27,425 bases of DNA from a virus (lineage: Duplodnaviria; Caudoviricetes), in the IMG/VR virus record IMGVR_UViG_3300010219_000073, positions 1 through 27,425 of that record; one strand, written 5' to 3'. Of this stretch, positions 4,001 through 21,474 are shown in pieces. The number at the start of each line of letters is the position of its first letter. The first letter of the stretch is position 1. Position numbers and translations under genes: made by a program. The notes under the pieces were generated by a model, which did no database searches, had not been told where the DNA came from, and worked only from the letters and a program-made list of their open reading frames with translations.

Positions 4001-4217
4001 AGGCAGCTACTTGGGAGTGAAGAGCCTGGGAGACCTCTTGAGTGGCTTTGCTAACCGATTGAGCAACGGTAGCAACCGTCTTGTTACCATGAGCACTAAT
4101 CTCAGCTTGCACACCACCAAGAGAGGTGATCGTAAACTGAGTAAGCTGCTGAAGGGTAGTTTTAAAGCTTGCTTCATCTAATAGGAATTCGATTCCTACT
4201 TGGGCTTTGGAGGACAT
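1086..4217 (-). CDS. Tail tape measure protein
   Basis: 1043 aa, Ala/Lys/Glu-rich helical; Gly/Ala hydrophobic stretch, amphipathic repeats, C-terminal FGEGGIV...GEAGDEAIIPL motif typical of tape measures; follows the chaperone genes. Confidence 0.92.
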   Translation of the reverse strand: MSSKAQVGIEFLLDEASFKTTLQQLTQFTITSLGGVQAEISAHGNKTVATVAQSVSKATQEVSQALHSQVAASASANEAIAKAEAKMNDVRTKYNKDSGKQIIDDMKKLQDEKATILHASTLTVEKEAKAELAARKKEIDDELRLMKQVALEKKDVQEGGAGAKAGILGTGRQIIGGAASGIGGAAGSLLAGGAVAGLAMEGFNKLHEYAAIADDASDNMSIAFQKAGLSGKALEDAIDDAGKSATKMADDFAMPKHEVMALQATIAGYGNITGENLTKLTEISIGSANAMGMNAESVAKLIAKGADPEQEAQLKKLGIEFGKTTDASERMRIIQEKLGPAIQATKDSTQDSMGAFDRMKNKLMDTATAFADKAFSALQPIFEALMTVIDALMPVVDGLIPIVVTLAGVFGDTAKELALALVPLLKELTPIIVFLANVISTVLKFALGLAVDGVKLLIQAITQVVKWIKDAAEAIYNFTKGIVEFFSSSGGDKKVKQKVEVEQQVTVQPESQQQIEEKHDKAQEFAEKAAAKNAAKSEKIQESAEKKAERLRKEAFDKEKKEREEFYKEKQIELDLQLAKGEVSEEYVKRHTLENTIALNDELAEIARTHGEQDIQFRLNSAKAQADHRKFDADRELEATAKKYDDQAEALKLSLDKEEITQEQYAIKEKELAVKRAAERIAILKKYAVDSNTAGKDLEKAQKDKANEEEKQERDHQKELKKIADEAREKEISVIEDSHTREIALEEWKYNQELEQLRKSTDNKLVLKAKEAQLLERHNEKVKEIDAKAQKEQEERVKGYYARVVDFFSEGADQKRKKAKEFAAQELLGLEANFFEQEGIVKKFLLNQLVSYISSKWAEVAVVQSTEAAKTGATQGGILQRIPMLAQEIGTNVASAASAAYGAVASAIKWITTIIPFPFSLALIPAAIAGIYGLYTGARKLFKFGEGGIVQRAQRFSFGPNNEFEGERGEAGDEAIIPLHKLPGIMQSLNLLPSAAASSLPIVQELRDLHDTMKKQPAPIVLDQYANKISQDQALSVVNSRRL

Positions 4218-4240
4218 GAGTTATAAGGAGGGATTAATTG

Positions 4241-4284
4241 AAAAAAAAACCGCACCACGAAGAGAGGTATCGTTGGTGCGGTTT
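4241..4284 (-). terminator. Intrinsic terminator between tail chaperone and tape measure
   Basis: Stem aaaccgcacca / tggtgcggttt, extended by cga/tcg, ending in 9 U on the minus strand. Confidence 0.8.
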
Positions 4285-4327
4285 CTAGTATTCTTTAAGT
4301 GCTAACTTATAAGTTATATGTTAGGCT

Positions 4328-4621
4328 TTAAGCATTTGGTCTTTCCTTTTCCTTGGCTTGGTAATAAGCATACTCCGCACTACTGCGAGCACCAATAAAG
4401 CATAAGTGTTTAACGACATCAGGATAAGGGAGACTACCAGCGAGTAAGTATTCACTAATCACGGAGCCCGAAGCAAGGAAAAGGGTAACCTCACTTTGGT
4501 ATTCTAAAGGGACATAATCCATAATGTTAGGTCCCTCCTGTCTATCTGTTGCCAGTTCACTAAAAGCACTGCTTATTTTGTGCGCCTCTTTTCTTTGCCT
4601 GGCAACTTCGAAACGAAAAAA
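4328..4621 (-). CDS. Tail assembly chaperone C-terminal extension (gpGT-like), reached by -1 frameshift; includes ORF 4328-4522
   Basis: The -1 frame is open from the slippery site at 4615-4621 (FFRFEVARQRKEAHKISSAFSELATDRQEGPNI-MDYVPLEY...) to the stop at 4328. Confidence 0.75.
   Translation of the reverse strand, partial: FFRFEVARQRKEAHKISSAFSELATDRQEGPNIMDYVPLEYQSEVTLFLASGSVISEYLLAGSLPYPDVVKHLCFIGARSSAEYAYYQAKEKERPNA
4548..4621 (-). promoter_or_regulatory. Programmed -1 ribosomal frameshift signal
   Basis: T TTT TTC heptamer in the correct phase (4615-4621), 8-nt spacer, then 8-bp stem GTTGCCAG (4599-4606) / CTGGCAAC (4548-4555) on the mRNA strand. Confidence 0.72.
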
Positions 4622-4962
4622 TGGAGTTCGTGGACTAGCTTTGCGCTTTCTTGGTCCGTTGGCATGTACTCTTCCAACAGGTCTGACATTTTAGGACTGC
4701 TACCTACTGGAATGAACACAAGGTCTAGCATGAACTTAATCATGTCAGGATGATTCTGATTTTCTTTAATCCATTTACCGAACTTCGCTTCATTCATCTC
4801 CTTCGCTTTTGGATTATGCTTTTTATAGAGATCAATACCCGCCTGTTGCAAGCGGGCTTGCATAAAGAAGTTGACCGGTTGGATTTCGTATTTGTGTTTT
4901 TTCATTACAAACACTCTTGAGTTAGGTTTAGAAATACCAGAGAGTGGTTTTAAGACCTTCAT
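4573..4962 (-). CDS. Tail assembly chaperone (gpG-like)
   Basis: 129 aa ORF between tail tube and tape measure, with an HFF slippery motif near the C-terminus. Confidence 0.8.
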   Translation of the reverse strand: MKVLKPLSGISKPNSRVFVMKKHKYEIQPVNFFMQARLQQAGIDLYKKHNPKAKEMNEAKFGKWIKENQNHPDMIKFMLDLVFIPVGSSPKMSDLLEEYMPTDQESAKLVHELHFFVSKLPGKEKRRTK

Positions 4963-5020
4963 CGATTAATAATTATTGATAGTTGGGAGAAATAAAATTA
5001 ACTTTACTATTAAGAACGGA

Positions 5021-6010
5021 TTATGCGAACGCATCCATTTTGAATTGGATCTTCTTAGGATCGGCACCACCAAAGACAATAGAATCGGGAGTTGTTTCGT
5101 CGGAGTTATACATTACGGAGCCTTCAAAGAGAAGCTTAATCATGTTCTCCTTGTCACCAATACTTACCTCGTCAACCAGGCTAAGCACTCCAGGATCAAA
5201 CAGGAACGTCTCCCCTGCAAAGGTCTCATACTGAATCGGCACATCAATATCCCCATTTTCACTTGCCGCTTTAAGCTCCGTTACGCTCGTCTGTTTTAAG
5301 GTAACTTCTGCTTTAATATTACAGACCTCATTCAAATAGCGGTCACGGTTATCGACACTTGCACCTGTAAAGTCAAGTTCGATCTTCGGGTCTTTGAATA
5401 TTCCAACGTGGTTGTTATTTACCTTCACCTTAGAGAAGTTAGAAAGACCACGCTTTGTAACATCATACACAAGGTTAGCAGCACTAAGCCCTAAGGACTC
5501 TGCATCAACAATGGTAGTACCTGGGTTAAGTGTAGCAATGTTAGCCAAGATCCAGGCATATTCCGCTTTGGACATGGTGGTATACCAGTCGGCATCCACC
5601 TTTCGGGACTTTTGGTCCATCGAAAACTTAAACCTCATACCCATCAGGGCCGAACCGTCCGGTGTGTCTTGTCCCGCCGCGTTATCGATAAAAGGAAAGT
5701 GATCGCCGTCTTTGGTTACTACCTGTAGCTGGTGGAATTCCTTTGAGAGTAAGTAGAGATTTTTAAGGGATGCTACGTCTGTTTGGAGCAATCCTGCTTT
5801 AAACTGAGCCGAACGGTAGTTGGTAAACTTCCTATTGTTGCGGTCAGTAATGGTTATTGTTTTAAAATCAAGCGTAGTAGCTTCACGGAGCCCTAATACA
5901 CCTGCATCAGCTACATCAGTAAACGGGAAACCTTGTGTTGCTACTAGGATTTTTGCGTTACGCGGGATGCGGCGATTGGAAGACTTGTCGCCAGCAAAAT
6001 TTGTTGCCAT
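5021..6010 (-). CDS. Major tail (tube) protein with internal tandem duplication
   Basis: 329 aa, beta-rich, immediately upstream of chaperone and tape measure; the two halves align by eye. Confidence 0.75.
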   Translation of the reverse strand: MATNFAGDKSSNRRIPRNAKILVATQGFPFTDVADAGVLGLREATTLDFKTITITDRNNRKFTNYRSAQFKAGLLQTDVASLKNLYLLSKEFHQLQVVTKDGDHFPFIDNAAGQDTPDGSALMGMRFKFSMDQKSRKVDADWYTTMSKAEYAWILANIATLNPGTTIVDAESLGLSAANLVYDVTKRGLSNFSKVKVNNNHVGIFKDPKIELDFTGASVDNRDRYLNEVCNIKAEVTLKQTSVTELKAASENGDIDVPIQYETFAGETFLFDPGVLSLVDEVSIGDKENMIKLLFEGSVMYNSDETTPDSIVFGGADPKKIQFKMDAFA

Positions 6011-6060
6011 TGATTAAGAGTTACTAGAATTTAAGGGAGTAAGGGTTTAGGCTTGAGCTA

Positions 6061-6130
6061 TGTAATAGAGGCTCCGTAATAGAGGCTCTGTAATAGAAGT
6101 TACGCAGTAGGAGCTATATAATAGGAGTTA
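6061..6130. repeat. Five degenerate 14-bp tandem repeats upstream of the tail tube gene
   Basis: tgtaatagaggctc / cgtaatagaggctc / tgtaatagaagtta / cgcagtaggagcta / tataataggagtta. Confidence 0.85.
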
Positions 6131-6196
6131 GGTGGGGCTCAAGCTGTATAAACCCAGGGAATTTGTATCCCTGAGTTTGTGATATTATTCTGTTAC

Positions 6197-6228
6197 ACTT
6201 AGTTTTTTACCTACTTAGTTTTTTACCT
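6197..6228. repeat. Perfect 16-bp tandem duplication spanning the holin stop codon
   Basis: acttagttttttacct x2. Confidence 0.95.
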
Positions 6229-6439
6229 TAGATGATCGATATTGCAAAAGTGCATGAGTAACCGTACTAGCAGAGAATAGTCCAACAAAGTAGAGTGCAA
6301 CTTCAACCATCGCATTAATGACATTCTCTGGAATGTCAATAATACCAACAGTCTTTAGAGCACGAGCAATAAAGGTCAGTACTACCGGAATGGTCGTTGC
6401 AAGGTTCTTTGTAAACAGGGATTTCAAGAGTTCTTTCAT
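6215..6439 (-). CDS. Holin (two transmembrane segments)
   Basis: 74 aa, two hydrophobic segments, basic C-terminus, near the endolysin gene. Confidence 0.7.
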   Translation of the reverse strand: MKELLKSLFTKNLATTIPVVLTFIARALKTVGIIDIPENVINAMVEVALYFVGLFSASTVTHALLQYRSSKVKN

Positions 6440-6506
6440 ATTAGGTTATCTATGTTGATTAAAAGGGTTACTTAAGAGAACGGACATCCGTTCTAACTTT
6501 CGATTT

Positions 6507-6968
6507 CTACTTTCTAATTTCTTCTTTAATTTCTTGTAAGGTATGTTCAATGTTTTGGAGGGCGGTTCGGATAGGCTCTGCCTTGAGATCGATTAACTTC
6601 TCTATTTCTTTATTCCTTTCGGTCCTCCGTTCATCGAGCGTTTCAACTACAGTAGTCTTTACATTATCGAGACTAGGCTTAGCACTAATAAAGGCAAAAG
6701 CACCGAACAAAATGGCAATTACTGAAAGCACGGCACCATAGGATTTCCATTGGTCGAGAGTGATCCATAAGAACTTCTTCTGGGACTCCTTATGAATTAA
6801 TACCTCAGCTTCCTTAAGCTCTTCAAATGCCTTAAAGATGGCATTTGCAATCTGAGCCTCCTGTTCAATACTAAAAGCTGTTAGCGGAGGAGCCAATTCA
6901 TTTCGGGTTTGCTGGTTTAAAGTTGGGTGGTTTAGATTATGCTGGTTTTCACAAATCCTTTTATCCAT
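6507..6968 (-). CDS. Single-TM membrane protein with C-terminal coiled coil, in lysis cassette (holin-associated or spanin-like); true start may be downstream
   Basis: TM segment YGAVLSVIAILFGAFAFI followed by a heptad-rich tail; lies between endolysin and holin. Confidence 0.5.
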   Translation of the reverse strand: MDKRICENQHNLNHPTLNQQTRNELAPPLTAFSIEQEAQIANAIFKAFEELKEAEVLIHKESQKKFLWITLDQWKSYGAVLSVIAILFGAFAFISAKPSLDNVKTTVVETLDERRTERNKEIEKLIDLKAEPIRTALQNIEHTLQEIKEEIRK

Positions 6969-7465
6969 AGTTTCCTTGCTCTGGTTGGTTCGAAGTCTCT
7001 AAAGTGTCTAATCTTTGCATAGCACCCTTCCCCATTTCGTTGATCGCCTGAGGTGTGGCCAGAGGTATTATATTCAATAGTCGCAATGGCATAAGGTATT
7101 CCCTTATCGGTTTTAATGATATCGGTTACAAGTCCTGCGTGCCCCTGCCAAGTGTTCCCTAACTGAAAAATCACAATGTCACCAATTGAAGGCATGGCAC
7201 TCACATAGTGAGCTTTCCTTGCATTCTCATAAAAGGTTTGAGTACTCTTACTAAACGGAAATGGAATCTTCTTCTTATCGGCCAAACACGCAAGGTTAAA
7301 GATAGAAAGGAGTGCTGCAATACAGTAAGGTTCTCCTTCCTGCCAGTTGGTAGGATTCCTTCCAGAGTCCATTAAGTCTTTTAGCCAGGGAGCTTTGTTC
7401 TTTCCGGTTTCTACACAGCCAACATATTCACGCGCAATCGTTATTACGCGGTCACTTGTAATCAT
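6932..7465 (-). CDS. Endolysin, CHAP-domain peptidoglycan hydrolase
   Basis: Motifs EPYCIAA (catalytic Cys), GDIVIF, GHAGLV (catalytic His), TIEYNTS. Confidence 0.88.
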   Translation of the reverse strand: MITSDRVITIAREYVGCVETGKNKAPWLKDLMDSGRNPTNWQEGEPYCIAALLSIFNLACLADKKKIPFPFSKSTQTFYENARKAHYVSAMPSIGDIVIFQLGNTWQGHAGLVTDIIKTDKGIPYAIATIEYNTSGHTSGDQRNGEGCYAKIRHFRDFEPTRARKLWIKGFVKTSII

Positions 7466-7477
7466 AGGATAATAGGA

Positions 7478-8005
7478 TTAATAGGTTTCTATTAGGGGAA
7501 GATCGATTCGGGTCACATACCAGGGATGGGCTACTCGGTAGGTCTCGCTTACATTCTTAAACGGGCTTTCGTGATCTACGTAACAGGTTGAACCACTTAC
7601 CCAGGTGAAGTTCTTTGGTTGAATACCTGTAGTATCTGTTTCTCCACCCTCTGGCTCTTGCAGCTTTTTTAATATGTAGTCTACGAGATTATCCCGTTGC
7701 CTTTGAAGGTCTATGCCTTCAAAGCTATAGAAGTAGAGATATAAAGCAACGCGGCCAATGTTATCAACTAATGAGCCCTGTTCATTATCGAGCGGAAATT
7801 CACGGTTGACGTGCCACACCCGAACTGCCGGAACATCCGTTTCAGAAGGCATCCCTTCTTCATTAACGATTGCAAGGCCACGCTCAACAGACTCAAATAA
7901 AGGGGTATTATTTAGATCAACCAAACCTTTCAGCCATTCGATTATTTCGTCAACACTGAGGTTCAGGCCGGACTCAGGAAGGTTTAGTTTATGGATATCA
8001 GCCAT
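7478..8005 (-). CDS. Putative tail terminator / tail completion protein
   Basis: 175 aa acidic alpha/beta protein following the neck gene; position-based. Confidence 0.55.
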   Translation of the reverse strand: MADIHKLNLPESGLNLSVDEIIEWLKGLVDLNNTPLFESVERGLAIVNEEGMPSETDVPAVRVWHVNREFPLDNEQGSLVDNIGRVALYLYFYSFEGIDLQRQRDNLVDYILKKLQEPEGGETDTTGIQPKNFTWVSGSTCYVDHESPFKNVSETYRVAHPWYVTRIDLPLIETY

Positions 8006-8059
8006 TTTGGATATCAGCTATGATTAAGTGTATCAGCTATGATTAAGGATATCAGCCAT
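7991..8059. repeat. Four copies of the start-codon region of the 7478-8005 gene
   Basis: ggatatcagccat, ggatatcagctat, gtatcagctat, ggatatcagccat; the last two are each preceded by gattaa. Confidence 0.85.
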
Positions 8060-8085
8060 TAATACTTGTGGAGAGGGAGTTAATT

Positions 8086-8517
8086 TTAATAATTAATGCG
8101 GTTAACCATTTGTGCTAAGTCTTTCTCCATCTCTATTAAGGTTTTTGTACCAACGTCAAGGAATGGAGTTGCTGGTATATTCTTCGTACCAAAGTGATTG
8201 TATTCTGCTTTTATTTGGTCCTCGTCTCTTACCGTAATGGTGTTACCGTACAGGTCAAGACCGGTTAGCATTTTCTCAGTGTTTCGGAGCGTTCGTGGTG
8301 TTGTTGGAAGACCTAACTTTTTGCGTCTCTTTTGATAGGACTTCGAATAAGGTTTGTACGGGTGGCCTTCAGGGTCTAAGCCATGAACGGTGTTTTCTCT
8401 AATTTGATCGATAACCCGTTTTGCAGCAAGTGGGATAACCTGTGTAGAATAAACCTCAATTAGCTTCAAAGTAACTGTTTCAAAATCACCAGCTTTTATA
8501 ACAATCCGTACTTTCAC
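8086..8517 (-). CDS. Phage virion morphogenesis / neck protein (Mu gpG / P2 gpS-like)
   Basis: Basic 143 aa protein with DPEGHPYKPYSKSY, LRNTEKML and HFGTKNIPATPFL motifs; GTG start. Confidence 0.8.
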   Translation of the reverse strand: MKVRIVIKAGDFETVTLKLIEVYSTQVIPLAAKRVIDQIRENTVHGLDPEGHPYKPYSKSYQKRRKKLGLPTTPRTLRNTEKMLTGLDLYGNTITVRDEDQIKAEYNHFGTKNIPATPFLDVGTKTLIEMEKDLAQMVNRINY

Positions 8518-8574
8518 TCTTTTCGGACCCTCATTCTATGGTAAATCAGTTGATAGCAGCTATGGCAATACCGA

Positions 8575-9411
8575 TTATGGCAATATCGATTTCTGTACTT
8601 TGAAAGTTGGTAAGGTGCCTAGTGTTTTAACGGTAAGGTTACCTACACTTGCGGAAGCAGTACTGCCAGGCATTATTCTAAGCGCTACTCCTTTTGGAAC
8701 AGGTGTGTAAAGTGGAAGCGTGTTATTGAAACTAGCTCCTGAGTAGTTTCCAACTGCTCCCACAAAGTTGTTGAAGTTTAGATTAGTATCCGTCCAACCG
8801 CTTAGGTTACAGGAAAGCACTCCCTGCCCTCCACCACCAAACCATTTAAAGCCATTGATGTTTGTAAGAAATGTTCTGGGTATGAGGAGAATGGAAGCTG
8901 CACGAACATCGATTTGGTTTGTGGTTGAACACCATAACCTTACTCCAACTGTGTCCCCTGCTTGTGTTTGAGTGTTACTAGAAACTGGCATCAGGAAAGT
9001 CCACCACCTCCCTCCGGTAACATTCATGGCACCGCTTCCCGTTGTGAAGTTTGTACCATTAAGCTGAGTCCTAAAGTTCAGGGTGAGCAAGCTTGCAGAG
9101 TTATTGAACCCTCCCATCACTAAATAGGCATTCCAGTCGTCTACATCTGAGTTAACTGGGTAATCACTGGTTAAGAGAGTCTTTGTATAATGAGGGCTTC
9201 CTGTTCCAGGATCTGAGGTTGCCGTAACAAAGAAAGGAGTAAACTCTTCGGAGATTGCAGCACTCCAGGGACTTGTGCTTAGATCAACGTCACTAGTCGT
9301 AAAACTAGAGCTTCCACCCCCACCAGGAATAACATCCGTTGGCAGTTGATCGCCACTTGGCATTTCAGCCGGCAATCCATTATAAAGAACAATAGGTCGT
9401 CTTACTGTCAC
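8575..9411 (-). CDS. Fibre / receptor-binding-like virion protein
   Basis: Short N-terminal anchor MTVRRPIVLYNGLPAEMPSGDQLP, GGGGSSS linker, then a Thr/Gly/Asn-rich beta domain. Confidence 0.55.
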   Translation of the reverse strand: MTVRRPIVLYNGLPAEMPSGDQLPTDVIPGGGGSSSFTTSDVDLSTSPWSAAISEEFTPFFVTATSDPGTGSPHYTKTLLTSDYPVNSDVDDWNAYLVMGGFNNSASLLTLNFRTQLNGTNFTTGSGAMNVTGGRWWTFLMPVSSNTQTQAGDTVGVRLWCSTTNQIDVRAASILLIPRTFLTNINGFKWFGGGGQGVLSCNLSGWTDTNLNFNNFVGAVGNYSGASFNNTLPLYTPVPKGVALRIMPGSTASASVGNLTVKTLGTLPTFKVQKSILP

Positions 9412-9424
9412 TTCTTCTATTCCC

Positions 9425-9934
9425 TTATGCTATGGTAACCGGTGTTCCTGTGATCCATCGAGCGGTCGTTGCAGTAAGAGCAACTACAACAGGCTGCACA
9501 AGCTGTCCTGATGTTGTGGGAGGTGTGACCGTTACACCACCAGGAGTTGTGGCACTAAGAAAATAGATAGCTCCTGGGGTTAATCCGGACAGTTGATCGT
9601 TCGTACCGTCTAACTGCACGGTTGCAGTTGAGCCACTTAAGTAAGTCTGCCTTACAAATCCTCTCCCTGGCTTATTAGAACCAGCATCAGCTTTACGGAT
9701 TTTGGTTACTCCCAAGTCATTCCAGATGTTTACGATATCCCCTGCCGTTAGTCCTTCACTGCACACAGCCATAAAGTTTTCCGCACCGATACCGGACGGC
9801 ATAAAGGACTCATCCCATTTTCCATTGGCATCAAGAGCAGGGATTTTTCCAGCATCCCCAGAACCCGTTGAAGTAGTTGGAGGAGTCTTGAGTGTATGAA
9901 CACCATTAACGAGATCTAAAAATTTGTCGGACAT
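9425..9934 (-). CDS. Virion structural protein, capsid-cement / fibre-base-like
   Basis: Motifs AGKIPALDANGK, EGLTAGDIVNIW, LTPGAIYFLSATTPG, recalled from small phage decoration and fibre-adaptor proteins. Confidence 0.55.
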   Translation of the reverse strand: MSDKFLDLVNGVHTLKTPPTTSTGSGDAGKIPALDANGKWDESFMPSGIGAENFMAVCSEGLTAGDIVNIWNDLGVTKIRKADAGSNKPGRGFVRQTYLSGSTATVQLDGTNDQLSGLTPGAIYFLSATTPGGVTVTPPTTSGQLVQPVVVALTATTARWITGTPVTIA

Positions 9935-9977
9935 TTATAAGAGCCTCTATCAAAAAAAGGTGTATCAGATTAAAATG

Positions 9978-10436
9978 TTATGTAAGAGTTGGAGCTTTGA
10001 TATCAACCACCATAGAAGTTTGGGAGGTTGGAAATCCCAGCATTAAGATAAATCCAGCCGTTGGTACCGTTTGCGTGAGTAAGCCATTAGGACCTAAAAA
10101 GACCGGAATATCTGGCAGCCAATTAAACGTAGGTTCAATAATCTCTCCATTAGGAACAATGGTGACCTCCTGATTAGCGAGTCCCGCTGTAATTGTAACT
10201 CCAACAACTTTAGTTGCGTGTGAGGGAATAGAGTTATCGGCATAGATAACCTTTCCACTATTATCAACCGTTACTGCCTTATGGCCGCTTATGTTCGTTG
10301 CACAAATCTTTTTTAATAAAGGATTTCCGTCTTTGCCAGGCGGACCTTGTTTAGCAACAGCTAAAAGGGCAACCTTTCTCCTGTTAAGACTAATCTCTGC
10401 AAATCGTTTTGTTAGGTTTAATTCTACTCTCTGCAT
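9978..10436 (-). CDS. Virion structural protein, capsid-cement / fibre-base-like (distant paralogue of 9425-9934)
   Basis: QGPPGKDG mini-collagen, then ISGHKAV...YADN...VVGVT...PVFLGPNGLLTQTVP. Confidence 0.55.
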   Translation of the reverse strand: MQRVELNLTKRFAEISLNRRKVALLAVAKQGPPGKDGNPLLKKICATNISGHKAVTVDNSGKVIYADNSIPSHATKVVGVTITAGLANQEVTIVPNGEIIEPTFNWLPDIPVFLGPNGLLTQTVPTAGFILMLGFPTSQTSMVVDIKAPTLT

Positions 10437-10447
10437 TGTTGGAGTAA

Positions 10448-10813
10448 TTATAGACTAAATGTAACGGATTGCACGAACTTTATTTTACCCTTCGCAACCA
10501 ATATGGCCTCGTTATCAGGAGGTATTAACCAAATGTCGTATAAGTACTCAGGTTGTTTGAGCGTATTGCAAACGGTACTGGAAAGATAAATCCTGAACTC
10601 GCCTGGATCGGTAAGTACTGTTCCTTCTGGTGTGGCTGAAGGAGTCACATCGGAATAACGGTACTTCACAGTACACCGAACGCTCCAACCTGTAATGTCA
10701 ACCGGCACCTTGTCAACACTATAAGTCATTATGTGATCAATAGCACTGCCACGCGGAACGATAATGTCTAATTCCGCCGGTTCAAGACCACTACCATAAA
10801 CTTCATTTGACAT
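10448..10813 (-). CDS. BppU N-terminal-like adaptor protein
   Basis: IPRGS-like segment, PVDITGWSVRCTVK, YLYDIWL...KGKIKFVQSVT pattern typical of small Ig-like fibre adaptors. Confidence 0.6.
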   Translation of the reverse strand: MSNEVYGSGLEPAELDIIVPRGSAIDHIMTYSVDKVPVDITGWSVRCTVKYRYSDVTPSATPEGTVLTDPGEFRIYLSSTVCNTLKQPEYLYDIWLIPPDNEAILVAKGKIKFVQSVTFSL

Positions 10814-10838
10814 AAGTATTTAGATTCGAAACCAAAGC

Positions 10839-11345
10839 TCAAATACGAAACCATAAAGGTTTAGTTGTAGTACGTTCATCATCTTCAATGGTACCATTCT
10901 GAGAAAGATCTGGCTTTAATAACTTCACTGCCTGAGACATTCGGATTTTGTATTTCTCTTTCCAAATGTCCCGTAAGGCAATGTAGTAATCCATATTACG
11001 TTCTTGCCCCATCTTGAAGCTGATCGAGAGTTCATCAATCATGCTTAGAACCGTTGCAGCAATAGCCGCACGCTTTAGGACTTCTGGGTTTTGAAGCTTG
11101 TCTAAGATCGTGTCAAGCTCCGTTAAGGTATAACCACTATAATAGTCGGTACCAACAAACGCTTTGAAGAGTGGCGGTAACTCTACTAGGAGTTCTGTCT
11201 CAAGCATTGCTTTAGCATTCGCTTTGTTACGTTCAAAGAACGAAGCATCACCGTTTGGTGGAAGTAGGAAGTTTTTACTTCCTACTTCCGTACTCCAGTC
11301 GGTTTCATCAAAGAGAGAGAGTTCTAGCCAGGAAGTTGGGGCCAT
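10839..11345 (-). CDS. Putative head-tail adaptor
   Basis: 168 aa helical protein immediately after the major capsid gene; position-based. Confidence 0.55.
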   Translation of the reverse strand: MAPTSWLELSLFDETDWSTEVGSKNFLLPPNGDASFFERNKANAKAMLETELLVELPPLFKAFVGTDYYSGYTLTELDTILDKLQNPEVLKRAAIAATVLSMIDELSISFKMGQERNMDYYIALRDIWKEKYKIRMSQAVKLLKPDLSQNGTIEDDERTTTKPLWFRI

Positions 11346-11363
11346 AGGATCGCTCCTTAGTTA

Positions 11364-12296
11364 TTATCCTGCGCTGTTGATAATAACTGCACGGCTAAGG
11401 TCTAACTCCTTCACACCCCACTTAACATCAAGGGAGTACACCCAGCTACGAATGTCGGTCTTGTAGTACTTCTGAACGCGAAGGGAAACACCGGTCTCAG
11501 GATCGGTAACGATTTCTTCTTCAACGGCAGCACCACCATGAGCATCCGCACGCTCGAACTCTAAGAACCCGATAACGAAGGCAAAGCGGTCAAACAAGAC
11601 GTTTTTGGTAACAAGAGGGTCACCGCTGGAAGTAATGTGTTGAGAATAATCTATCGCCACGTTATAAAGGTTAGGCATCTTACCCCTAGTGATCGCGTCC
11701 GTTGAACCAACGTTCATCGCGTTCACATACTTCTGTTCATCGAGCAAGTCCTTATAATATCCCTTTGGATTTGTGACAAATGTGGTACGCGATGGATCGA
11801 CCTGCAACCCGTTATTGGTGAGCATGGTAATAGCATCACGGAAGAGATCGTCCGAGAGGGGAACCGGAGAAGCCGCAGAACCCACCGATTGAGTAACCAG
11901 GGAGCTAAGAGACAGTAAGCTTTGATCGATTGAGGTTACGATACCGTCCAGCATTGCGGAGTAGACCATTTGTAGCCACCGGTCAAAGTTGCCCTGGGTA
12001 TAACGGGACTCTGCTTCATTTGCCGTGATAACGATTTCCTTATGGTTCGTAAAATCTAACGTAACTCCATCATTGATGTTTACGTCCTGAGGGACCGCCG
12101 GAGTGGTGTAACTCACATTGGTCGGTGTCATAATGGAGGCAGGTTTGGTAATACGAACAGAGTTACCACCCTGTGCTATGTTCTGTTGAGTAGTCTCGAC
12201 ATAGGTCCTGCCTAGGATCGCTACCTTTTTACGAAGGTATTCTAAAGAGAAACCGCTAAGGAGACCTGGAATAAGTTGGGAGTATTGATTAGCCAT
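11364..12296 (-). CDS. Major capsid protein (P22 coat-like, HK97 fold)
   Basis: 310 aa; GNSVRITKP, TLDFTNHKE, IDQSLL, GVSLRVQKYY and LDVKWGVKEL motifs; follows the scaffold gene. Confidence 0.88.
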   Translation of the reverse strand: MANQYSQLIPGLLSGFSLEYLRKKVAILGRTYVETTQQNIAQGGNSVRITKPASIMTPTNVSYTTPAVPQDVNINDGVTLDFTNHKEIVITANEAESRYTQGNFDRWLQMVYSAMLDGIVTSIDQSLLSLSSLVTQSVGSAASPVPLSDDLFRDAITMLTNNGLQVDPSRTTFVTNPKGYYKDLLDEQKYVNAMNVGSTDAITRGKMPNLYNVAIDYSQHITSSGDPLVTKNVLFDRFAFVIGFLEFERADAHGGAAVEEEIVTDPETGVSLRVQKYYKTDIRSWVYSLDVKWGVKELDLSRAVIINSAG

Positions 12297-12297
12297 G

Positions 12298-12371
12298 TAA
12301 GCTGTTAGGATTGATTAAGCTGTTAGGATTAAGCTGTTAGGATTAAGCTGTTAGGATTAAGCTGTTAGGAT
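12298..12371. repeat. Five identical 14-bp repeats abutting the capsid start codon
   Basis: taagctgttaggat at 12298, 12316, 12330, 12344, 12358; degenerate ~15-bp repeats continue to ~12470. Confidence 0.95.
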
Positions 12372-12512
12372 TGAATTTGAGGATTAAGAATTTGACAGAG
12401 GATCAAAGATCAGAGAATTAAAACCTTAAGGTATTAAAGATTAGAGAATCAAAGATTGGGGTTAAAAGAGCAAGGGAGTTATCGTATTCTTAACTCTATT
12501 TTACTTTTAACC

Positions 12513-13382
12513 TTATTTTACTTTTAGTTCACCTTTCCTAAAACGATTGTAAAGTTCGATTGCCGTCGCGCCATCTAAATTTCCAAGCGTAGCATGAACG
12601 CTCGCATTACCGCTCGCATTACCGTTAGTATGACTTTCGACACCAGTTCTGCCTTTCATTCCTTGTGGTGCCGAGGGACGGACCATGTGAGGACGGTCTT
12701 TGATCAGTGCCGCAACTACTTCAGTAACGGTTGCAGGTTCGTGATTGCGTGAAGCTTCACGGACTAGGTCGCCACTCTTGGTATAGACCTGGATCTTACC
12801 ATTTACATTTTTAGCGTAGTAGTTACTATTAAAGATGGTTGTTACATCGTTGACAGAATAGACATTGAAATTACTAAGTGCCTTAATGACTTCGTTCTCT
12901 GTAATGTACTGGGTAACGTTCTCCTGAAGTCTCGCCTTTTCTCGTTCGGAAGCCTCGGCACGTAAGCGGTAGGTTTCCTTTTCTTCATCGGTCTGCGTAT
13001 TTGAGTTTAAGGATTCTGCTTTTCTTGCTTGTTCCGTTTTCGATTGTTCGGCTGTGAGCTTGATGCCTGAAGTCTTAATACCCAACGTTTTGAGTGATTC
13101 AATCGTCTTTTGAAGAGACTGGATAGGGTCACCTTCATCTGCTGTCACAATTCCTAATTCCTTAAGAGAGGTAAGCATTTCCTTCGCAGCTTGTCCCTTA
13201 CCTTCCAAAAGTCCGTTTTCGAAAGAGTTACCCTGCTTGTCAGTTTTGGATTCGAGTTCAAATTTGTTACTCTGGTGACCAGCATTGTTGGTTAGTTGTT
13301 GCAGCAGTTGAGCTACTGCATCGGTCGGATTAGAAGAACCATTGCTGTTCTCTTGTGTACTGTTATTATTATTTGTCTCCAT
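12513..13382 (-). CDS. Capsid scaffolding protein
   Basis: 289 aa, low-complexity N-terminus, coiled coil, Gly-rich linker and short C-terminal helix; between portal and capsid. Confidence 0.75.
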   Translation of the reverse strand: METNNNNSTQENSNGSSNPTDAVAQLLQQLTNNAGHQSNKFELESKTDKQGNSFENGLLEGKGQAAKEMLTSLKELGIVTADEGDPIQSLQKTIESLKTLGIKTSGIKLTAEQSKTEQARKAESLNSNTQTDEEKETYRLRAEASEREKARLQENVTQYITENEVIKALSNFNVYSVNDVTTIFNSNYYAKNVNGKIQVYTKSGDLVREASRNHEPATVTEVVAALIKDRPHMVRPSAPQGMKGRTGVESHTNGNASGNASVHATLGNLDGATAIELYNRFRKGELKVK

Positions 13383-14976
13383 GTATTAATGCATTTTCTG
13401 GATTAACCGTCTTTGAATTTTCTTCTGGGATTAAAGCTTTTTGGATTAAATCGGCTTGGGAAGGTTGGTCGATCGGACTCTCTTTTTCTACTTGCATCTT
13501 TTCGACTTGCTTCTTCTCTAACTGCTGCGTTTCTAATTCTTTTTTAACCTGTTCATCAATTTCCTGTTCGATTGTCTTTAAGAGCTTAGAGTCAATACCT
13601 GGCAGGGTTGCCCGCCAAATCTTTTTGGTTAGTTCACCTGCTGCCGTGATACTGGTTGGCATGGAACCACTGGAAAGGATTTGTCCTAAGGTGGTGGCTT
13701 CGGTCATAATTTCCTGAGCACCTTTCATCTCAAAAGAGATGGGATAAGTAACCGTAACTGGCTTTATGCCACTGGTTGCTAACTGCCCATCTGCTATGAG
13801 TTTAGTGATCTTCCGGTCGGCACTCTCGAAGAACTGAGCAATCTCGCTCATCACGCCATGCTCAGGAACGGCATCTAAGAGCTTAGCAATGCCGCTTTGA
13901 GTAGTGACAGTTGATACGTCTCTTAATCTGGCAGCGTGAGCAATGTTCTGGGGTGCTAACTCAAACTTGATCTTGGTTAACATCTCGATTTCCATTGCCG
14001 GGGTCTCTAGGTAACGGGTCGCTACATAGCTTGAACCGCCTCGCTCTACAATAACCTGACTTGCTCCTGTCCCTTGTTTAGAGGTGTGTTCCGCTGTATC
14101 CTGACTCATTACCACTTTAGGAAAGAGGTGCATGTAGCCCGCTTCCACCAGCATTGAGGTAAACTGTAAGTTCGCTATCGAAAGCTGAATGATATTGTAC
14201 ATGAACGCATGGCCTATGGTATTCTCATAGTAGCTACCGAAGAGACCTTTTACCATTCGGTTGAGATCGTTATACGGATAGCTACCATAATTACCAATGG
14301 AGGCCATATTTTCACTGTACGCAATCCGGACCATTGGAACACGGCCAAAGTTGTGAGGTAAAACCTTCACTTGAAGCCTGTCGGCTTTTTTGTCTTTAGC
14401 CCTAATGATTGTCTCTTTTTCGGTAAGGATGATTAAGTCATCACCACATTCGAAAGAGATCCATAAGAACTCGCCGTTTGGCTTCCGTTCAAAGTTGCGA
14501 ACCCACTGTGGATAGATAATTTTTGGTACCGGCTTAATCCCCTGCTCAACCTGTTCACCATAGTTTGCGGGCATCTCATCTAACTCTGGAAACTTCACCC
14601 AAACATAGAGTTCAGGCATAAGTAGAGACCAGGGAGCGAACTGCTGTTGAAACCACTGTTTGTAATCGGTCTTAAAGTATTCATCTAAGAGAGTGTCTCC
14701 ACAAGAACGTGTCACTTCATTGGTGCGGAATACTCCTTCCACATATTTAGAGCTAACCTGCTGAACATAGTTGTCATAGTGCCGCATCGTTGCAAGCCGT
14801 CTCCATTGGAGTTTATTCCAGGGCTCATGCTGAGAAAAGGCAAAGATGAAGGGAAAGAGCAACTCACCTCCATAGTAGCTTGCAATCGCTTCCGCCGCCT
14901 GGTTCGCAATGATGCGAAGGTTAGGACGCGGTTTCTCAGCATCTTCTAGAAGCTGTTCTATGGGGATTTCTGGCAT
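13369..14976 (-). CDS. Portal protein
   Basis: 535 aa directly after TerL; HNFGRVPMV and QSGIAK motifs, VTYPISF near the C-terminus. Confidence 0.85.
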   Translation of the reverse strand: MPEIPIEQLLEDAEKPRPNLRIIANQAAEAIASYYGGELLFPFIFAFSQHEPWNKLQWRRLATMRHYDNYVQQVSSKYVEGVFRTNEVTRSCGDTLLDEYFKTDYKQWFQQQFAPWSLLMPELYVWVKFPELDEMPANYGEQVEQGIKPVPKIIYPQWVRNFERKPNGEFLWISFECGDDLIILTEKETIIRAKDKKADRLQVKVLPHNFGRVPMVRIAYSENMASIGNYGSYPYNDLNRMVKGLFGSYYENTIGHAFMYNIIQLSIANLQFTSMLVEAGYMHLFPKVVMSQDTAEHTSKQGTGASQVIVERGGSSYVATRYLETPAMEIEMLTKIKFELAPQNIAHAARLRDVSTVTTQSGIAKLLDAVPEHGVMSEIAQFFESADRKITKLIADGQLATSGIKPVTVTYPISFEMKGAQEIMTEATTLGQILSSGSMPTSITAAGELTKKIWRATLPGIDSKLLKTIEQEIDEQVKKELETQQLEKKQVEKMQVEKESPIDQPSQADLIQKALIPEENSKTVNPENALIHGDK

Positions 14977-15017
14977 TGATTAAAAAACTTAGAAGCTATA
15001 AGATTAAAAGAGGAAGC

Positions 15018-16427
15018 TTAGAACAAGAAGCTGGATAACTGAGAAGTATTCGTATTACGGACCTTTTCTAATTCGGAGAACTGATTAATGAAATAACCAA
15101 AGGCATCGCTTGAGTGAGTTAGCACACCTGTCTTTTGCTTACTAAAGAGCATCTTACGAGTTACACGCTCAAAGTCTCTGATGTGATTTTTGGCTGTTGG
15201 ATCAATCCTTACGGAGACTTCACCTTTTGCATTTTTGAGAACCGTGTTTACATTATTAATACGGTCGTTGATCGGGCCTTGTGTCTCTTCGTGGTATTGA
15301 GCATTTGTAAAATAATTACGGATTTGCTGCCACGCGGACTCCGTAGCCTCTGCCTTATTACTGTTACCACTATGGTCTCCATAGAAATGGAGAGTACCAT
15401 AGGGAAGCTTTGTGTGATCGATATCAAACGATCTAAGTCTTGCATCCAACTCATGACACATCATTTCAACCGTTGCGTTTGGCAGGTACACCTCGCAAGG
15501 CACCCTATAGATTGTTGTCGGTGCTTTTGATGAACTATTTGGATGAACCGTGTTGAAGTCTACCTGGTAAATTCCCCAATTGTGGTGACCATAGTTGAAG
15601 TCACAAGAGACATGAATTCTGTCACCACTAATAAAAGGAGTCCCGACTACATGAGAACCTAACTGGAAGTTGTTATACGCACGTCCTGGAGCGGTAATAA
15701 AACTCGCATTGAACTCCTGTTCGTAAAGCTCCGGTGTATAGAATGCTTTAAGCTCTTCTAACTTGTGATCCGGAATTACATCGCTGCTCGGCCAATGAAA
15801 AGCCTCCCAGTTCTTATCTTTCCCTAATGATTGCTCATAGAGGGCGCGTTCGAACAGTTCTTTGAACTCCTGAGAACTTGGACCTTCAACGTCTGGAACG
15901 CCTAAGTGAATGCTCCACCCGTCACGCGGTACCAACATCGGGTAAATGTTCTTTTCCCAAATGTCCGCTTCAATGTCCGCTCGTTCATCTAATACGCACC
16001 CATCAAACTCAATACCTTCAATGCGTTCACTTGCCTTGAGTCCTACTAAATGGATTTCGTTACCGTGACGGGTAGTAATAATGTGATCGCTTTCTGAGAT
16101 GCTACCAACCCACAAGGGAGGCATCAGGTCCTTTAAGTCCTGCCATGCGATACGGATAACCTGGTCCTTTGTTGGAGCACCATAGAAGAACTTTGTTTTG
16201 TAGCTCTTCTTTTCACCTGCCGCTAGAATGAGCGTACGCTTTGCGATTTCCGTTTTAAGGGACCTGCGGCCAGCTACAACGACTTTGTGACGGCTGGTGC
16301 TGTTTAGATACCGTTTGCGGGGACCAGTAAGCCCAGGACAGCCTTTCTCAGTCATTCGAAACCACCGTCTGGGAAAGAGCAAATCTTTATTCGAACGATT
16401 TTTATATGTCCGGTTCTGGATTATCAT
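15018..16427 (-). CDS. terL: Terminase large subunit
   Basis: Walker A-like VVAGRRSLKT, YGAPT, Walker B CVLDE, YEQEFNASF, nuclease motifs SCDFN, GDHSG, HSSDAFGY. Confidence 0.93.
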   Translation of the reverse strand: MIIQNRTYKNRSNKDLLFPRRWFRMTEKGCPGLTGPRKRYLNSTSRHKVVVAGRRSLKTEIAKRTLILAAGEKKSYKTKFFYGAPTKDQVIRIAWQDLKDLMPPLWVGSISESDHIITTRHGNEIHLVGLKASERIEGIEFDGCVLDERADIEADIWEKNIYPMLVPRDGWSIHLGVPDVEGPSSQEFKELFERALYEQSLGKDKNWEAFHWPSSDVIPDHKLEELKAFYTPELYEQEFNASFITAPGRAYNNFQLGSHVVGTPFISGDRIHVSCDFNYGHHNWGIYQVDFNTVHPNSSSKAPTTIYRVPCEVYLPNATVEMMCHELDARLRSFDIDHTKLPYGTLHFYGDHSGNSNKAEATESAWQQIRNYFTNAQYHEETQGPINDRINNVNTVLKNAKGEVSVRIDPTAKNHIRDFERVTRKMLFSKQKTGVLTHSSDAFGYFINQFSELEKVRNTNTSQLSSFLF

Positions 16428-16902
16428 TTAAGGCATTCCCTTTTAACTCTTCATTAAGGTCACTTTCAGAAGGAGGTTCAAACCCTTGTTCAATATCAAA
16501 CCCCTTTTCAATATCAAATCCCTGTTCGGTGTATTGCTTTAAGAGTTTGCGTTGGGCTTCCTGAATCTCATCCAGTTTCTCGGAGTCCGATGAAGTACGG
16601 TGTTCGAGCTTTGTCACACTCCTCCACCGGTCCGGCTCGCGGTTGCATAGCCAAAAGATTATTGCTGGTATTTTCCCACTTACAGCACTTACGAAAAGCG
16701 CATCTTCGACCGCCTGGGAGGCAGCTTCTTCGGTATGGGCTACCTGTACGGCAAATTGAGGATCATTCTTCAGCCAGTCATAAAAGGTACGCCGTCCAAT
16801 ATTTGCAGCACGGCAGGCATCAATGACACGGGATCCTCTCGATATCGACTCCAGAACCCTCCGCTTTTTCAACTGAGTGGTTTCCGGAGACTCTTTCGAC
16901 AT
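16402..16902 (-). CDS. terS: Terminase small subunit
   Basis: N-terminal HTH (ACRAANIGRRTFYDWLKNDPQF), VEDALF...AIIFWLCNREPDRWR; upstream of terL. Confidence 0.85.
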   Translation of the reverse strand: MSKESPETTQLKKRRVLESISRGSRVIDACRAANIGRRTFYDWLKNDPQFAVQVAHTEEAASQAVEDALFVSAVSGKIPAIIFWLCNREPDRWRSVTKLEHRTSSDSEKLDEIQEAQRKLLKQYTEQGFDIEKGFDIEQGFEPPSESDLNEELKGNALNDNPEPDI

Positions 16903-16907
16903 AGCTG

Positions 16908-18014
16908 TTAACTCAAAGGATTAGAAGGGTTGGAAGGATTAGGAGAACTTGAAGGATTAGGAGAAGTGGAAGGATTAGGAGAAATAACTGAGACTGGATC
17001 TATCTTCGACAAAATGTTCTCCTTAATGTGAAGAGCGATTGCCCGCATGAACTTTGGAGGTACTGAGTTGCCTAACCTTGCGACTTGATCGAGATAGGTA
17101 CCGATAAGCTTAAAAGAGTCAGGAAAAGAAGCAACACGTTTTAACTCTTCTGCCGACAAATGCCGGTGTTCATAGGGATGGATTAGAAAGTTCGAATAGG
17201 GAATGAACATCTTTGTAATGGTTCTGGCCGGACGGTCTGGGTGAGCCCGTACGCAACTGTTCTTGTGATCGTAGGCTGTTTTGCGCAGTACTTTTGGAAT
17301 GTACTCTTTTAACAACTCCTTTGGTACACACTCTAACGCAGACTTTCCCTGGGTGATATAGGGAAGAACGATGGAGGCACCTCTACCCTCGGGAGCAAAG
17401 GTCTTACTTTTAACATCCTTAATTGCTTCCCACAGACCAACGATACGCTCTGTTCCAATGGGATGAGAGGGTTTAAGATCAAAGCTGTCACATAAGTCGT
17501 TTCTAACACCAATAAAGATCAGCCTTTTACGCCACTGGGGAACACCGTAATACATGGCGTTAAGCACTCTTGCTCTTACGGTGTAGCCGCAGGCTTTAAG
17601 GGAACGCATGGCCTCCGCAAAGATCAGTTTCATATTTCCTTGCACCATGCCTTCGACGTTTTCCATTACAAAAACTTTGGGCTTCAAGTCCCTTAGCAAT
17701 CTGCAGTACTCCCGAAAGAGCTGATTGCGGTCGTCTGTAAACTTGCGCTTACCGATCGTTGAAAATCCCTGGCATGGTGGTGAACCGTCTAATATGTCAA
17801 GCTCGCCTGGAGTGAGGCCCGTTCTCCGAAAGATTTCGTGAGTGGTGAGTTTTGATATATCCCCATAATAAAGATCGGTCTCTGGAAAATTTAACCGGTA
17901 GGTCTCAGCCGCATTCTTATCCCACTCGACCGCTAACAGGACTTTGCCACCAGCTTGCTTATACCCAAGAGAAGAACCACCACAACCGGAAAAGGTACTG
18001 ACAACAGTAAACAC
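16908..18014 (-). CDS. DNA (cytosine-5)-methyltransferase, orphan
   Basis: Motifs FSGCGG, GSPPCQGFS, ENV, QWRKR, GNSVPP; GTG start; no adjacent restriction endonuclease. Confidence 0.95.
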   Translation of the reverse strand: MFTVVSTFSGCGGSSLGYKQAGGKVLLAVEWDKNAAETYRLNFPETDLYYGDISKLTTHEIFRRTGLTPGELDILDGSPPCQGFSTIGKRKFTDDRNQLFREYCRLLRDLKPKVFVMENVEGMVQGNMKLIFAEAMRSLKACGYTVRARVLNAMYYGVPQWRKRLIFIGVRNDLCDSFDLKPSHPIGTERIVGLWEAIKDVKSKTFAPEGRGASIVLPYITQGKSALECVPKELLKEYIPKVLRKTAYDHKNSCVRAHPDRPARTITKMFIPYSNFLIHPYEHRHLSAEELKRVASFPDSFKLIGTYLDQVARLGNSVPPKFMRAIALHIKENILSKIDPVSVISPNPSTSPNPSSSPNPSNPSNPLS

Positions 18015-18072
18015 TATTTGTATGAGGATTAAAGAAAGGAGTTAAGGAAAAAGAGTTAAACAAAGAATGGAG

Positions 18073-18114
18073 AGAAAGGAGATGAAGATTAAAGAAAGGA
18101 GATGAAGATTAAAG
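18073..18114. repeat. Perfect 20-bp tandem duplication at the stop of the ParB-like gene
   Basis: agaaaggagatgaagattaa x2, with a degenerate copy near 18027. Confidence 0.9.
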
Positions 18115-18831
18115 TGTTTTTGCGAGCTTCGCTTGTGGAAATTGTTTTACAATTTCAGTGAGCATTGCTTCCACACGTTCGGCATCGATCATTGGTACCT
18201 TAAGAGTAAACTTTGCCTCAGCCGCGAAATTGTCCGCTACACTTTCATCGAATTCTTTTCCCTCACGAGCTTCTTGTGTATCCCGAACAGGTTTAGAGAA
18301 TGAGTTTTGGGAATCGCTCGAATTCCTTTCCAAATCCTCACTGGCAACTGACGTTATGTGATCGGTTTCTGTAATTGCTAGACTACTTAAGTTTAGGTTA
18401 CTAAGATCCAGGCTATCCAGATTCAACTTGCCAAAGGTATCCGGCATATCTAGCTCCATCTCGCTTAAGATATTAAAGACACCTGTAGTAAATTGTCCCT
18501 GTATCGTTGGACTATTGGCCGCAATGTTCGCAGCCCGTTCTTTCTTCTTAGGCCAGTCTACAAACCGTACATGAAACTTATTACCGTCCGGTGTTAGAAT
18601 CACACCTTCATTCTCATTTACCGCTGTGATGCTTAAGTCCCCATAACGCTCCTGTAAAGCTTTGATCCTTTGATGAGCTGCTATAAGATTCTTTGTTCGT
18701 TTGTTGAACGTAATACCGCTAAGGTCACCAAATTCTTCCAGGGAGTATTTAAGCCCTTCTAACGCATCAGGTGAAATCTCGCGCGGGTTATAAGCTGCTG
18801 GTGTGAGGCTTGATAATTTGAGTTCAGTCAT
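18109..18831 (-). CDS. ParB/Srx N-terminal domain protein (phage, terminase-adjacent)
   Basis: LTPAAYNPREIS...SLEEFG...NKRTKNLIAAHQR. Confidence 0.85.
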   Translation of the reverse strand: MTELKLSSLTPAAYNPREISPDALEGLKYSLEEFGDLSGITFNKRTKNLIAAHQRIKALQERYGDLSITAVNENEGVILTPDGNKFHVRFVDWPKKKERAANIAANSPTIQGQFTTGVFNILSEMELDMPDTFGKLNLDSLDLSNLNLSSLAITETDHITSVASEDLERNSSDSQNSFSKPVRDTQEAREGKEFDESVADNFAAEAKFTLKVPMIDAERVEAMLTEIVKQFPQAKLAKTL

Positions 18832-18857
18832 TGAGTTCAGACATTGAGTTCAGACAT
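18819..18857. repeat. Three 13-bp copies of the ParB-like gene start
   Basis: tgagttcagtcat, tgagttcagacat, tgagttcagacat. Confidence 0.92.
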
Positions 18858-18882
18858 TAGGAAATAAGATTAGTATAAAATG

Positions 18883-19130: not shown

Positions 19131-19832
19131 CTAAAACAAATACTTCGCAAGTAACCTGGCTTCAATAACAGGCTTTGTAAGTGGGTATAGAATACCCTCC
19201 CCTGCTACGGTAAGCGTGTTCATTGCGGTAACTTCGGCGCCAATGCCTAGACCAATAAGGGCATTAGTACCGGTCGTTACAAAAGCGTATTTACTTAGTT
19301 CGATAAGTGGAGTAATTGGTATAGAATACGGAGAAAAGGAAGATGGGGAGAACACTTGTGGAATGTCGCTACTCTGTAGGGTTGAAATAGCTGGATAATA
19401 ACCAATATCGATAACCTTCTCCGGTGCCTGGAAGCTTGCACTAACAGAGTCGCCGTTCGGTAACCTTTTCCCTGCCGAAACAATGAAGCTATCAATAGCA
19501 GCATTAGTAACGGTATCTACTGCTTGAATATGGAGGCTATTCAAGCTAACCGCATTTGAATCTAGTTTATTTGAATCTAGTTTATTTGAATCTACTTTGG
19601 AGTTGTAGAAATGCTGCACAGGTAGAGTAACCTTGAAAATATCCTTGTGCTGGTTGCCTAGTACGGTTCTTAGTAGGGAGTCTTGAAAATCTATTGAAGA
19701 ACCAAGCGAATTAGAGGATTGATTGATGGACGGTTTATCGGAAGAATTGCTTGCTGGCCTTGCGAAGAGGTATGCAAGGAAAGAACAGACAAGCATCAGA
19801 CCTGCTACAATCCAACGGGCAGTTGTATTCAC
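19131..19832 (-). CDS. Membrane-anchored protein with C-terminal amphipathic beta strands (possible spanin-like)
   Basis: N-terminal TM WIVAGLMLVCSFLAYLF; ends LIGLGIGAEV...EARLLAKYLF with terminal Phe; GTG start. Confidence 0.5.
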   Translation of the reverse strand: MNTTARWIVAGLMLVCSFLAYLFARPASNSSDKPSINQSSNSLGSSIDFQDSLLRTVLGNQHKDIFKVTLPVQHFYNSKVDSNKLDSNKLDSNAVSLNSLHIQAVDTVTNAAIDSFIVSAGKRLPNGDSVSASFQAPEKVIDIGYYPAISTLQSSDIPQVFSPSSFSPYSIPITPLIELSKYAFVTTGTNALIGLGIGAEVTAMNTLTVAGEGILYPLTKPVIEARLLAKYLF

Positions 19833-20425: not shown

Positions 20426-20554
20426 CTTGTGCGGAGCTCCCCTAGTTTGCCATGTTATGGGTTCGTCACCATAACGATTCGGAGAGCTACCTGTGCGGTG
20501 AGATAAAGATCTGTTTCACGATACCTCTTATTTCACCGCACTACTTTATCGAAC

Positions 20555-20588
20555 TACTTAATCCATTTACTTAATCCATTTACTTAAT
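20555..20588. repeat. 13-bp tandem repeat at the stop of the small T9SS gene
   Basis: tacttaatccatt x2 followed by tacttaat. Confidence 0.88.
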
Positions 20589-21461: not shown

Positions 21462-21474
21462 AAAACAAAAGAGA

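Follow-up and report, generated by a model that had tools for sequence, protein, structure and literature searches.

Short tandem echoes of gene ends with mostly silent differences in a tailed provirus

We analyzed a stretch of 27,425 nt (hereafter, the window) of the tailed virus (Caudoviricetes) record IMGVR_UViG_3300010219_000073, which is classed as a provirus in IMG/VR and is 71% complete, so that 29% of the genome may be missing. The window contains a minus-strand operon with PHROGs matches for the terminase subunits, portal, major head, neck, endolysin, and tape measure proteins, and the subject of this study is the set of genes whose last codons and stop are followed by a short tandem copy, here called an echo. 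The labels fibre, adaptor, scaffold, and holin were given by position, without a firm family match (the adaptor and the holin have no family match); “fibre” was the label of the first-pass annotation, a reading of the sequence alone, and the N-terminus of that protein matches only “virion structural protein” in PHROGs. The large terminase subunit TerL shares only about 30% identity with GenBank phages, and the Atlas matches of the fibre protein and of a small type IX secretion system (T9SS) protein are under 0.9. Two paralogous genes have weak matches to T9SS C-terminal domains, which point to a Bacteroidota-like host. Scans of 28 window proteins against Pfam and PHROGs revealed no recombinase, integrase, polymerase, or reverse transcriptase, with the record 71% complete; Rfam gave no match in the window, and promoter-like and terminator-like sites occur at chance level.

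The echoes are real and follow approximately one gene in four (Table 1). The four diverged pairs and three exact echoes listed in the first-pass annotation are all present in the sequence, and the four pairs are not a selected subset, since a score blind to translation (threshold of at least 8) recovers all of them. With this score, echoes were detected at 6 of the 27 called stops of open reading frames (ORFs), compared with 6/940 stops in 68 control loci, which share the terminase family, vary in GC content, and are partly redundant, and with 0.5% in shuffled sequences. The six stops belong to the holin, fibre, adaptor, scaffold, TerL, and small T9SS-type genes, i.e., four diverged and two exact pairs. 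The ParB-like echo lies mostly downstream of its stop and was caught by repeat scans, not by the blind score. Beyond the units listed earlier, the small T9SS-type gene has a ladder of five, and the scaffold gene is followed by a third unit; the latter differs by three conservative changes and has an identity of 0.59, just under the 0.60 ladder rule, and was therefore left uncounted. The fifth T9SS unit may be a chance likeness. The adaptor echo stops 6 nt before the next start codon and the TerL echo approximately 27 nt before it, whereas the distance to the next start is 200 nt for the scaffold echo and 43 nt for the fibre echo. Readthrough or frameshift translation of the echoes was rejected, as periods of 13–20 nt yield all three frames.

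A predicted hairpin follows the small T9SS-type gene (20487–20542, minus strand), and its left arm overlaps echo units 4 and 5; folding of the 131-nt region around it is no better than that of shuffles (z −0.87). An apparent endolysin echo (6910–6948), considered as a counter-example, was rejected, being below the score threshold and in frame inside the overlapping ORF 6507–6968; the related protein P0021 has the same residues across this array. The ORF after the endolysin gene begins at an ATG within the last 12 endolysin codons (window 6902–6968; L003 13610–13646; L075 10501–10537), an overlap that is conserved in three phages and resembles those of lysis cassettes.

Table 1. Echoes, other short arrays, and operon context in the window
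Feature	Coordinates	Strand	Remarks
Fibre gene end and echo	8560..8589	minus	SILP-stop 8575–8589, echo SVLP-stop 8560–8574; period 15
Putative head-tail adaptor gene end and echo	10820..10856	minus	WFRI-stop 10839–10853, echo 10820–10834; period 19; label by position
Putative scaffold gene end and two further units	12479..12527	minus	LKVK-stop; echo 2 LKVK-stop 12496–12510; weaker unit 3 LRIR-stop 12479–12493; period 17
Terminase large subunit gene end and echo	15004..15032	minus	SFLF-stop; period 14
Putative holin gene stop	6197..6228	minus	Exact 16-nt duplication; label by position
ParB-like gene stop	18073..18114	minus	Exact 20-nt duplication; repeat scans
Ladder after small T9SS-type gene	20524..20588	minus	Up to five 13-nt units: IK-stop, IK-stop, IK-stop (TAG), IK-stop (ATA), VK-stop
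ParB-like gene start	18818..18858	minus	Start-spanning array, 3 x 13 nt (MSEL, MSEL, real MTEL)
Array before gene 7478–8005	7990..8062	minus	Start-linked; periods 19, 19, 16; non-silent differences
Array before major capsid gene	12298..12372	minus	Intergenic, 14-nt units, near exact
Array between holin and tail tube genes	6055..6130	minus	Intergenic, 14-nt array
Scaffold gene	12592..12624	minus	Exact 12-nt duplication, in frame
Portal gene tail	13484..13515	minus	15-nt duplication, in frame
Terminase small subunit gene	16478..16527	minus	18-nt array, in frame
Cytosine methyltransferase gene tail	16916..16983	minus	Formed by 18-nt array, in frame
Gene 19131–19832	19554..19598	minus	15-nt array, in frame
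Packaging, head, lysis, and tail operon	1086..18831	minus	TerS, TerL, portal, capsid, neck, endolysin, tape measure; context, tailed provirus

The differences between gene ends and echoes are predominantly silent. The 15-nt cores of the four diverged pairs contain 10 base differences in 9 codons, 8 of them synonymous and one an I/V replacement. The earlier count of 11 silent differences out of 12 is reached with the adaptor codon TTA/CTT, but this codon is at the margin of the alignment and is possibly not part of the duplicated unit; the bias itself stands. In simulations with the echo alone mutating, its probability was at most 0.0007, and with both copies mutating equally and the coding copy under selection, it was between 0.0005 and 0.017 for transition biases from 1 to 20. 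The T9SS paralogues (108 transitions vs. 89 transversions) favor the low end of this range; the echo differences include both C/T and T/A changes, and 8/10 are transitions. When the ladders were extended by a blind 60% rule, 13/44 degenerate but only 3/67 non-degenerate sites differed (P = 0.0003), corresponding to 12 synonymous codons and two I/V replacements, while the 14/42 differing spacer sites are an inflated count, with bases past the last unit included. Simple decay of a slippage copy, which would be expected to hit random positions, is not enough, as the first-pass annotation had argued, because the silent bias survives simulation even with the coding copy drifting. The contrast between degenerate and non-degenerate sites supports the view that the copies differ in the manner of alleles under protein constraint.

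Duplication of this kind is not confined to gene ends and also occurs at starts, between genes, and inside genes. A total of 14 arrays with periods of 12–20 nt were identified in the window, five spanning a stop, one spanning a start, three intergenic (one of them start-linked), and five within ORFs, so that 9/14 do not touch a stop. Their density (13 in 27.4 kb, 4.7 per 10 kb) compares with 52 in 775 kb (0.67 per 10 kb) for 71 other loci, which include a relative, L003, with 8 arrays in 17.6 kb. The periods of the in-gene arrays (12, 15, 18, 18, and 15) are all multiples of three (5/5, P = 0.004), compared with 2/9 of the other arrays, and arrays are depleted from coding DNA, with 5/14 wholly within ORFs although these offer 23,616 of 27,395 positions. 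The arrays have 2.00–4.29 copies, and the extra partial copy varies, being absent at the holin gene and 2 nt long at the ParB-like gene. Array units are mutually unrelated, and comparison of the echoes among themselves yielded no common long repeat that could serve as an att-like core.

Several further observations concern these repeats. In 2.8 kb of non-coding window DNA, the hexamer TTAATC is found 21 times on the coding strand and 2 times on the opposite one, compared with 9 and 7 times in 24.6 kb of coding DNA; it is frequently located just upstream of a start codon, is contained in many arrays, and also precedes the tube and scaffold starts in L003, and is possibly a translation-initiation or regulator motif. 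A 12-nt repeat in TerL (15960–15981, ADIEADI) stands at a place where relatives have a segment of equal length (ADMKEKI, ADLKPGA), which makes it a repeat by replacement and not by insertion. A period-7 array covers the stop of gene 6507–6968 (6504–6534), whose product ends in EIKEEIRK vs. EIRADVRSLR in P0021, and the duplication may have rewritten this C-terminus. Array density is raised (2–4 per 10 kb) in three control phages, L037 (11789–13650), L038, and L049, and the arrays of L037 and L038 have a common AAACYAC-like start.

Two close relatives of the provirus (contigs of 12,233 and 7,488 nt from the Joint Genome Institute) were compared as proteins. Close relatives carry other in-frame duplications, in the portal P0014 and the scaffolds P0035 and P0036. 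The four residues that correspond to the exact 12-nt duplication in the scaffold gene are missing in P0035, and since the C-terminal half of P0035 is otherwise identical, the exact copy arose before any protein change. Three close relatives are sub-gene mosaics, with 46 runs vs. 75 expected over 115 variable sites in four proteins (P < 0.0001) and a different genome as the odd one out from block to block, although clustering of sites by domain could add to this signal; the capsid protein of the 7,488-nt contig was inferred by elimination to be identical to that of the window, and the outcome of the runs test does not depend on its inclusion. G001 (locus L003), a distantly related provirus with conserved synteny, has echoes of unrelated sequence after the same two genes, scaffold (exact) and adaptor (IDRV-stop/IDKV-stop). 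In the complete phage G002, arrays are few and one of 57 stops is followed by an echo; this phage has genes for RecT and a PD-(D/E)XK nuclease, a weak RusA match, and an integrase-like gene. Two short GC-rich loci at 44–45% identity are without echoes. In G001, the ParB-like gene is followed by a TET-associated glycosyltransferase-like gene (PF20691; L003 4163–5712) whose start lies within the ParB echo, whereas the window has the cytosine methyltransferase gene there.

The explanation that we favor, with moderate confidence, combines frequent short duplication, survival where it is harmless, and subsequent exchange with diverged alleles that turns one copy into the end of another allele. Head-to-tail duplications of 12–20 nt are frequent, and replication slippage or flap errors would make them anywhere in the element; in genes only multiples of three are seen, presumably because only these survive, and a copy that takes in the stop would alter neither the protein nor the spacer behind it. 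If the partner phage in a cross lacks the echo, homology would stop at the edge of the extra copy, and the real terminus of the partner could align with either copy and replace it. The copies would then differ by long selected divergence of alleles, and not by short unselected decay of the echo, and the existing repeat would keep the register, accounting for the constant period of the ladders. Echoes would be functionless, and there is probably no need for a machinery directed at gene ends. Mosaicism was established at the protein level; its action on the echoes is proposed here. In simulations, the data become unremarkable once change in the selected lineage is at least about 5–10 times the echo mutation rate (P = 0.03–0.06 at a ratio of 5, 0.13–0.17 at 10, and 0.26–0.32 at 20); for comparison, a recombination-to-mutation ratio (r/m) of approximately 24 is reported for lactococcal siphoviruses (PMC5913663), and PMC3945230 describes Rad52-like recombinases as exchanging short diverged segments, including ones of approximately 100 bp within genes.

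Several results weigh against this explanation. Without the four first steps listed in the first-pass annotation, the silent excess in the window is not significant (4/21 vs. 2/33 sites, P = 0.15), nor is it in G001 and G002 together (5/23 vs. 4/34 sites, P = 0.26), where three echo codons are synonymous and five are non-synonymous; this test covered four echoes, two of which run into the start of the next gene, with a fifth G001 hit (a fragment ORF with Ns) excluded. The start-linked array before gene 7478–8005 decays non-silently (ATG to ATA, ATC to ACA). No echo was matched to a real allele end in the protein-level comparison, which is uninformative for the adaptor and TerL: the one fibre allele ends in SILP like the gene and not in SVLP like the echo, and the three scaffold alleles end in KVK, KIA, and KTR, none in the RIR of unit 3. 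Stops also hold more arrays than neutral opportunity predicts (5/9, P = 0.02 to 0.001, under a null that treats promoters, terminators, and start regions as free), an excess that has to be put down to presumed constraint on spacers, and the exchange would have to stop no more than a few bases from the edge of the unit. The proposal of the first-pass annotation that echoes are termini of diverged alleles has the degenerate-site contrast and heavy recombination in the family on its side, and lacks a matching allele.

Alternatively, the exchange itself might make the duplication. The incoming allele would pair up to the end of homology, at the stop and a few bases beyond, and be joined to an untrimmed flap of 13–20 nt from the old strand, each replacement pushing the old gene end downstream, so that a ladder would be a time-ordered record of earlier alleles. 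The small T9SS and scaffold ladders, which grade from units identical near the gene to diverged ones with protein sense kept, fit this, as do the array excess at stops and the strong mosaicism. Nevertheless, the exact copies (holin, ParB, T9SS units 1–2, and the G001 scaffold) need no second allele, same-sized arrays occur at starts, in spacers, and in genes, and a constant period over three to five units needs a pre-existing repeat for register; enzymes of this kind (recombinase, integrase, or reverse transcriptase) are absent from the 28 window proteins, with 29% of the genome possibly missing. We consider this scenario unlikely. It is essentially the idea of the first-pass annotation without a dedicated enzyme, and a variant with such an enzyme takes a very small part of its already low probability. 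The wider interpretation in that annotation is supported in part: the allele-like differences and the recombination have support, whereas a gene-by-gene process aimed at gene ends does not, given the arrays that touch no stop, exchange blocks that are sub-genic, and several exact echoes.

A history without recombination is also unlikely in our estimation. The duplications would be old and clonal, with the echo constrained at the nucleotide level as part of a hairpin or of a translation start region and with silent drift in the coding copy, or the bias would be a matter of luck. The proximity of the adaptor and TerL echoes to the next start, the location of T9SS units 4–5 in a hairpin arm, the prevalence of transitions (8/10) absorbed by Leu and stop codons, and the loss of significance outside the four pairs listed first are all compatible with it. 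On the other side, equal mutation in both copies gives the low probabilities quoted above (0.0005–0.017), the scaffold and fibre echoes are remote from the next start, and five different echoes would each have to be frozen by selection. Finally, an assembly artefact from mixed strains, which would produce precisely the end of one allele joined to that of another, or a non-natural sequence, is very improbable given the frame kept by in-gene arrays (5/5), ladders of three to five graded units, the same kind of duplication at other sites in independent contigs, the agreement of P0021 residues across the array 6910–6948, and the origin of the record as an IMG/VR provirus with natural relatives.

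Among known systems, integrating elements that reconstitute their target gene duplicate the 3' end of the gene, and the copies can differ silently; the displaced end then lies at the far side of the inserted element, and there is one common att core. In the window, by contrast, nothing is inserted and every unit is different, and the suggestion of integration or excision scars in the first-pass annotation is not supported, given the missing common core and the lack of an integrase among the 28 proteins of a record that is 71% complete. Homology-facilitated illegitimate recombination can likewise produce silently different copies of a 3' end, but it usually causes deletions and not duplications. 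Diversity-generating retroelements and retron retrohoming differ in that the window has neither a reverse transcriptase (Pfam, PHROGs) nor an Rfam match, and the C/T and T/A changes are not adenine-specific; neither the recombinase nor the reverse transcriptase that the first-pass annotation had proposed to look for was found among the 28 proteins, with 71% of the genome present in the record.

The element-wide pattern resembles the tandem repeats of Borgs, which are arrays of many near-perfect copies in giant archaeal elements that have polymerases of their own (Schoelmerich et al., 2023, PMC9879509). According to that article, Borgs share with the window unique short repeats throughout the element, units whose length within ORFs is a multiple of three, arrays between genes of which some start inside the end of an ORF, partial flanking repeats, a density far above that of comparable genomes, and slippage as the proposed origin. 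The window differs by its 2–5 copies, its nature as a small bacterial prophage, and the silent differences between copies, none such being reported for Borgs in the text consulted; furthermore, Borgs are giant linear archaeal elements with PolB, whereas the window is a tailed provirus with T9SS-type cargo and no polymerase among its 28 proteins. Microhomology-mediated tandem duplications (Wei et al., 2026, PMC13167724) are described as short and mostly neutral duplications that occur across bacteria and viruses, are underrepresented in coding DNA, and become more frequent in yeast with faulty Okazaki flap processing. The window arrays are likewise depleted from coding DNA, but microhomology is not clear in the window, with none at the holin copy; the main text of that article does not contain “stop codon,” and its model leaves the two-allele look of the copies unexplained. 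Relaxed Rad52-like recombination (De Paepe et al., 2014, PMC3945230; Kupczok et al., 2018, PMC5913663) shares the sub-gene mosaicism, which it shows among related temperate phages, and a single-strand annealing recombinase, RecT, is encoded in G002, with none found in the incomplete window; the available text of PMC3945230 does not contain “duplication” and describes no gene-end scars. No report of allelic gene-end duplications in phages was found in the literature searched, as judged by title and the start of the abstract.

The cargo genes of the provirus are unusual for a prophage. Two T9SS-type genes lie in tandem (20580–26064; 1,518 and 293 aa), the small one being a copy of the last 280 residues of the large one with near-identical DNA patches, and one full-length relative (34%) was found.

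Overall, on the features tested, the echoes represent known processes in a new variant, namely element-wide short duplications combined with mosaicism, and not an att scar or a retroelement. They also carry a caution, since silent-only differences in a non-coding copy require neither function nor a dedicated enzyme. Were the exchange itself to leave the flap behind, which we hold to be unlikely, the echoes would amount to a new recombination footprint in which past alleles are recorded in order, made by an undescribed mechanism halting at the end of homology. If the favored explanation is true, each gene end and the echo behind it amount to an internal pair of selected and unselected sequence, from which recombination with unseen relatives could be read in a single genome. 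The phage lineage, with approximately 7 times the usual density of short duplications, would provide a natural model for the origin of such duplications in bacteria.

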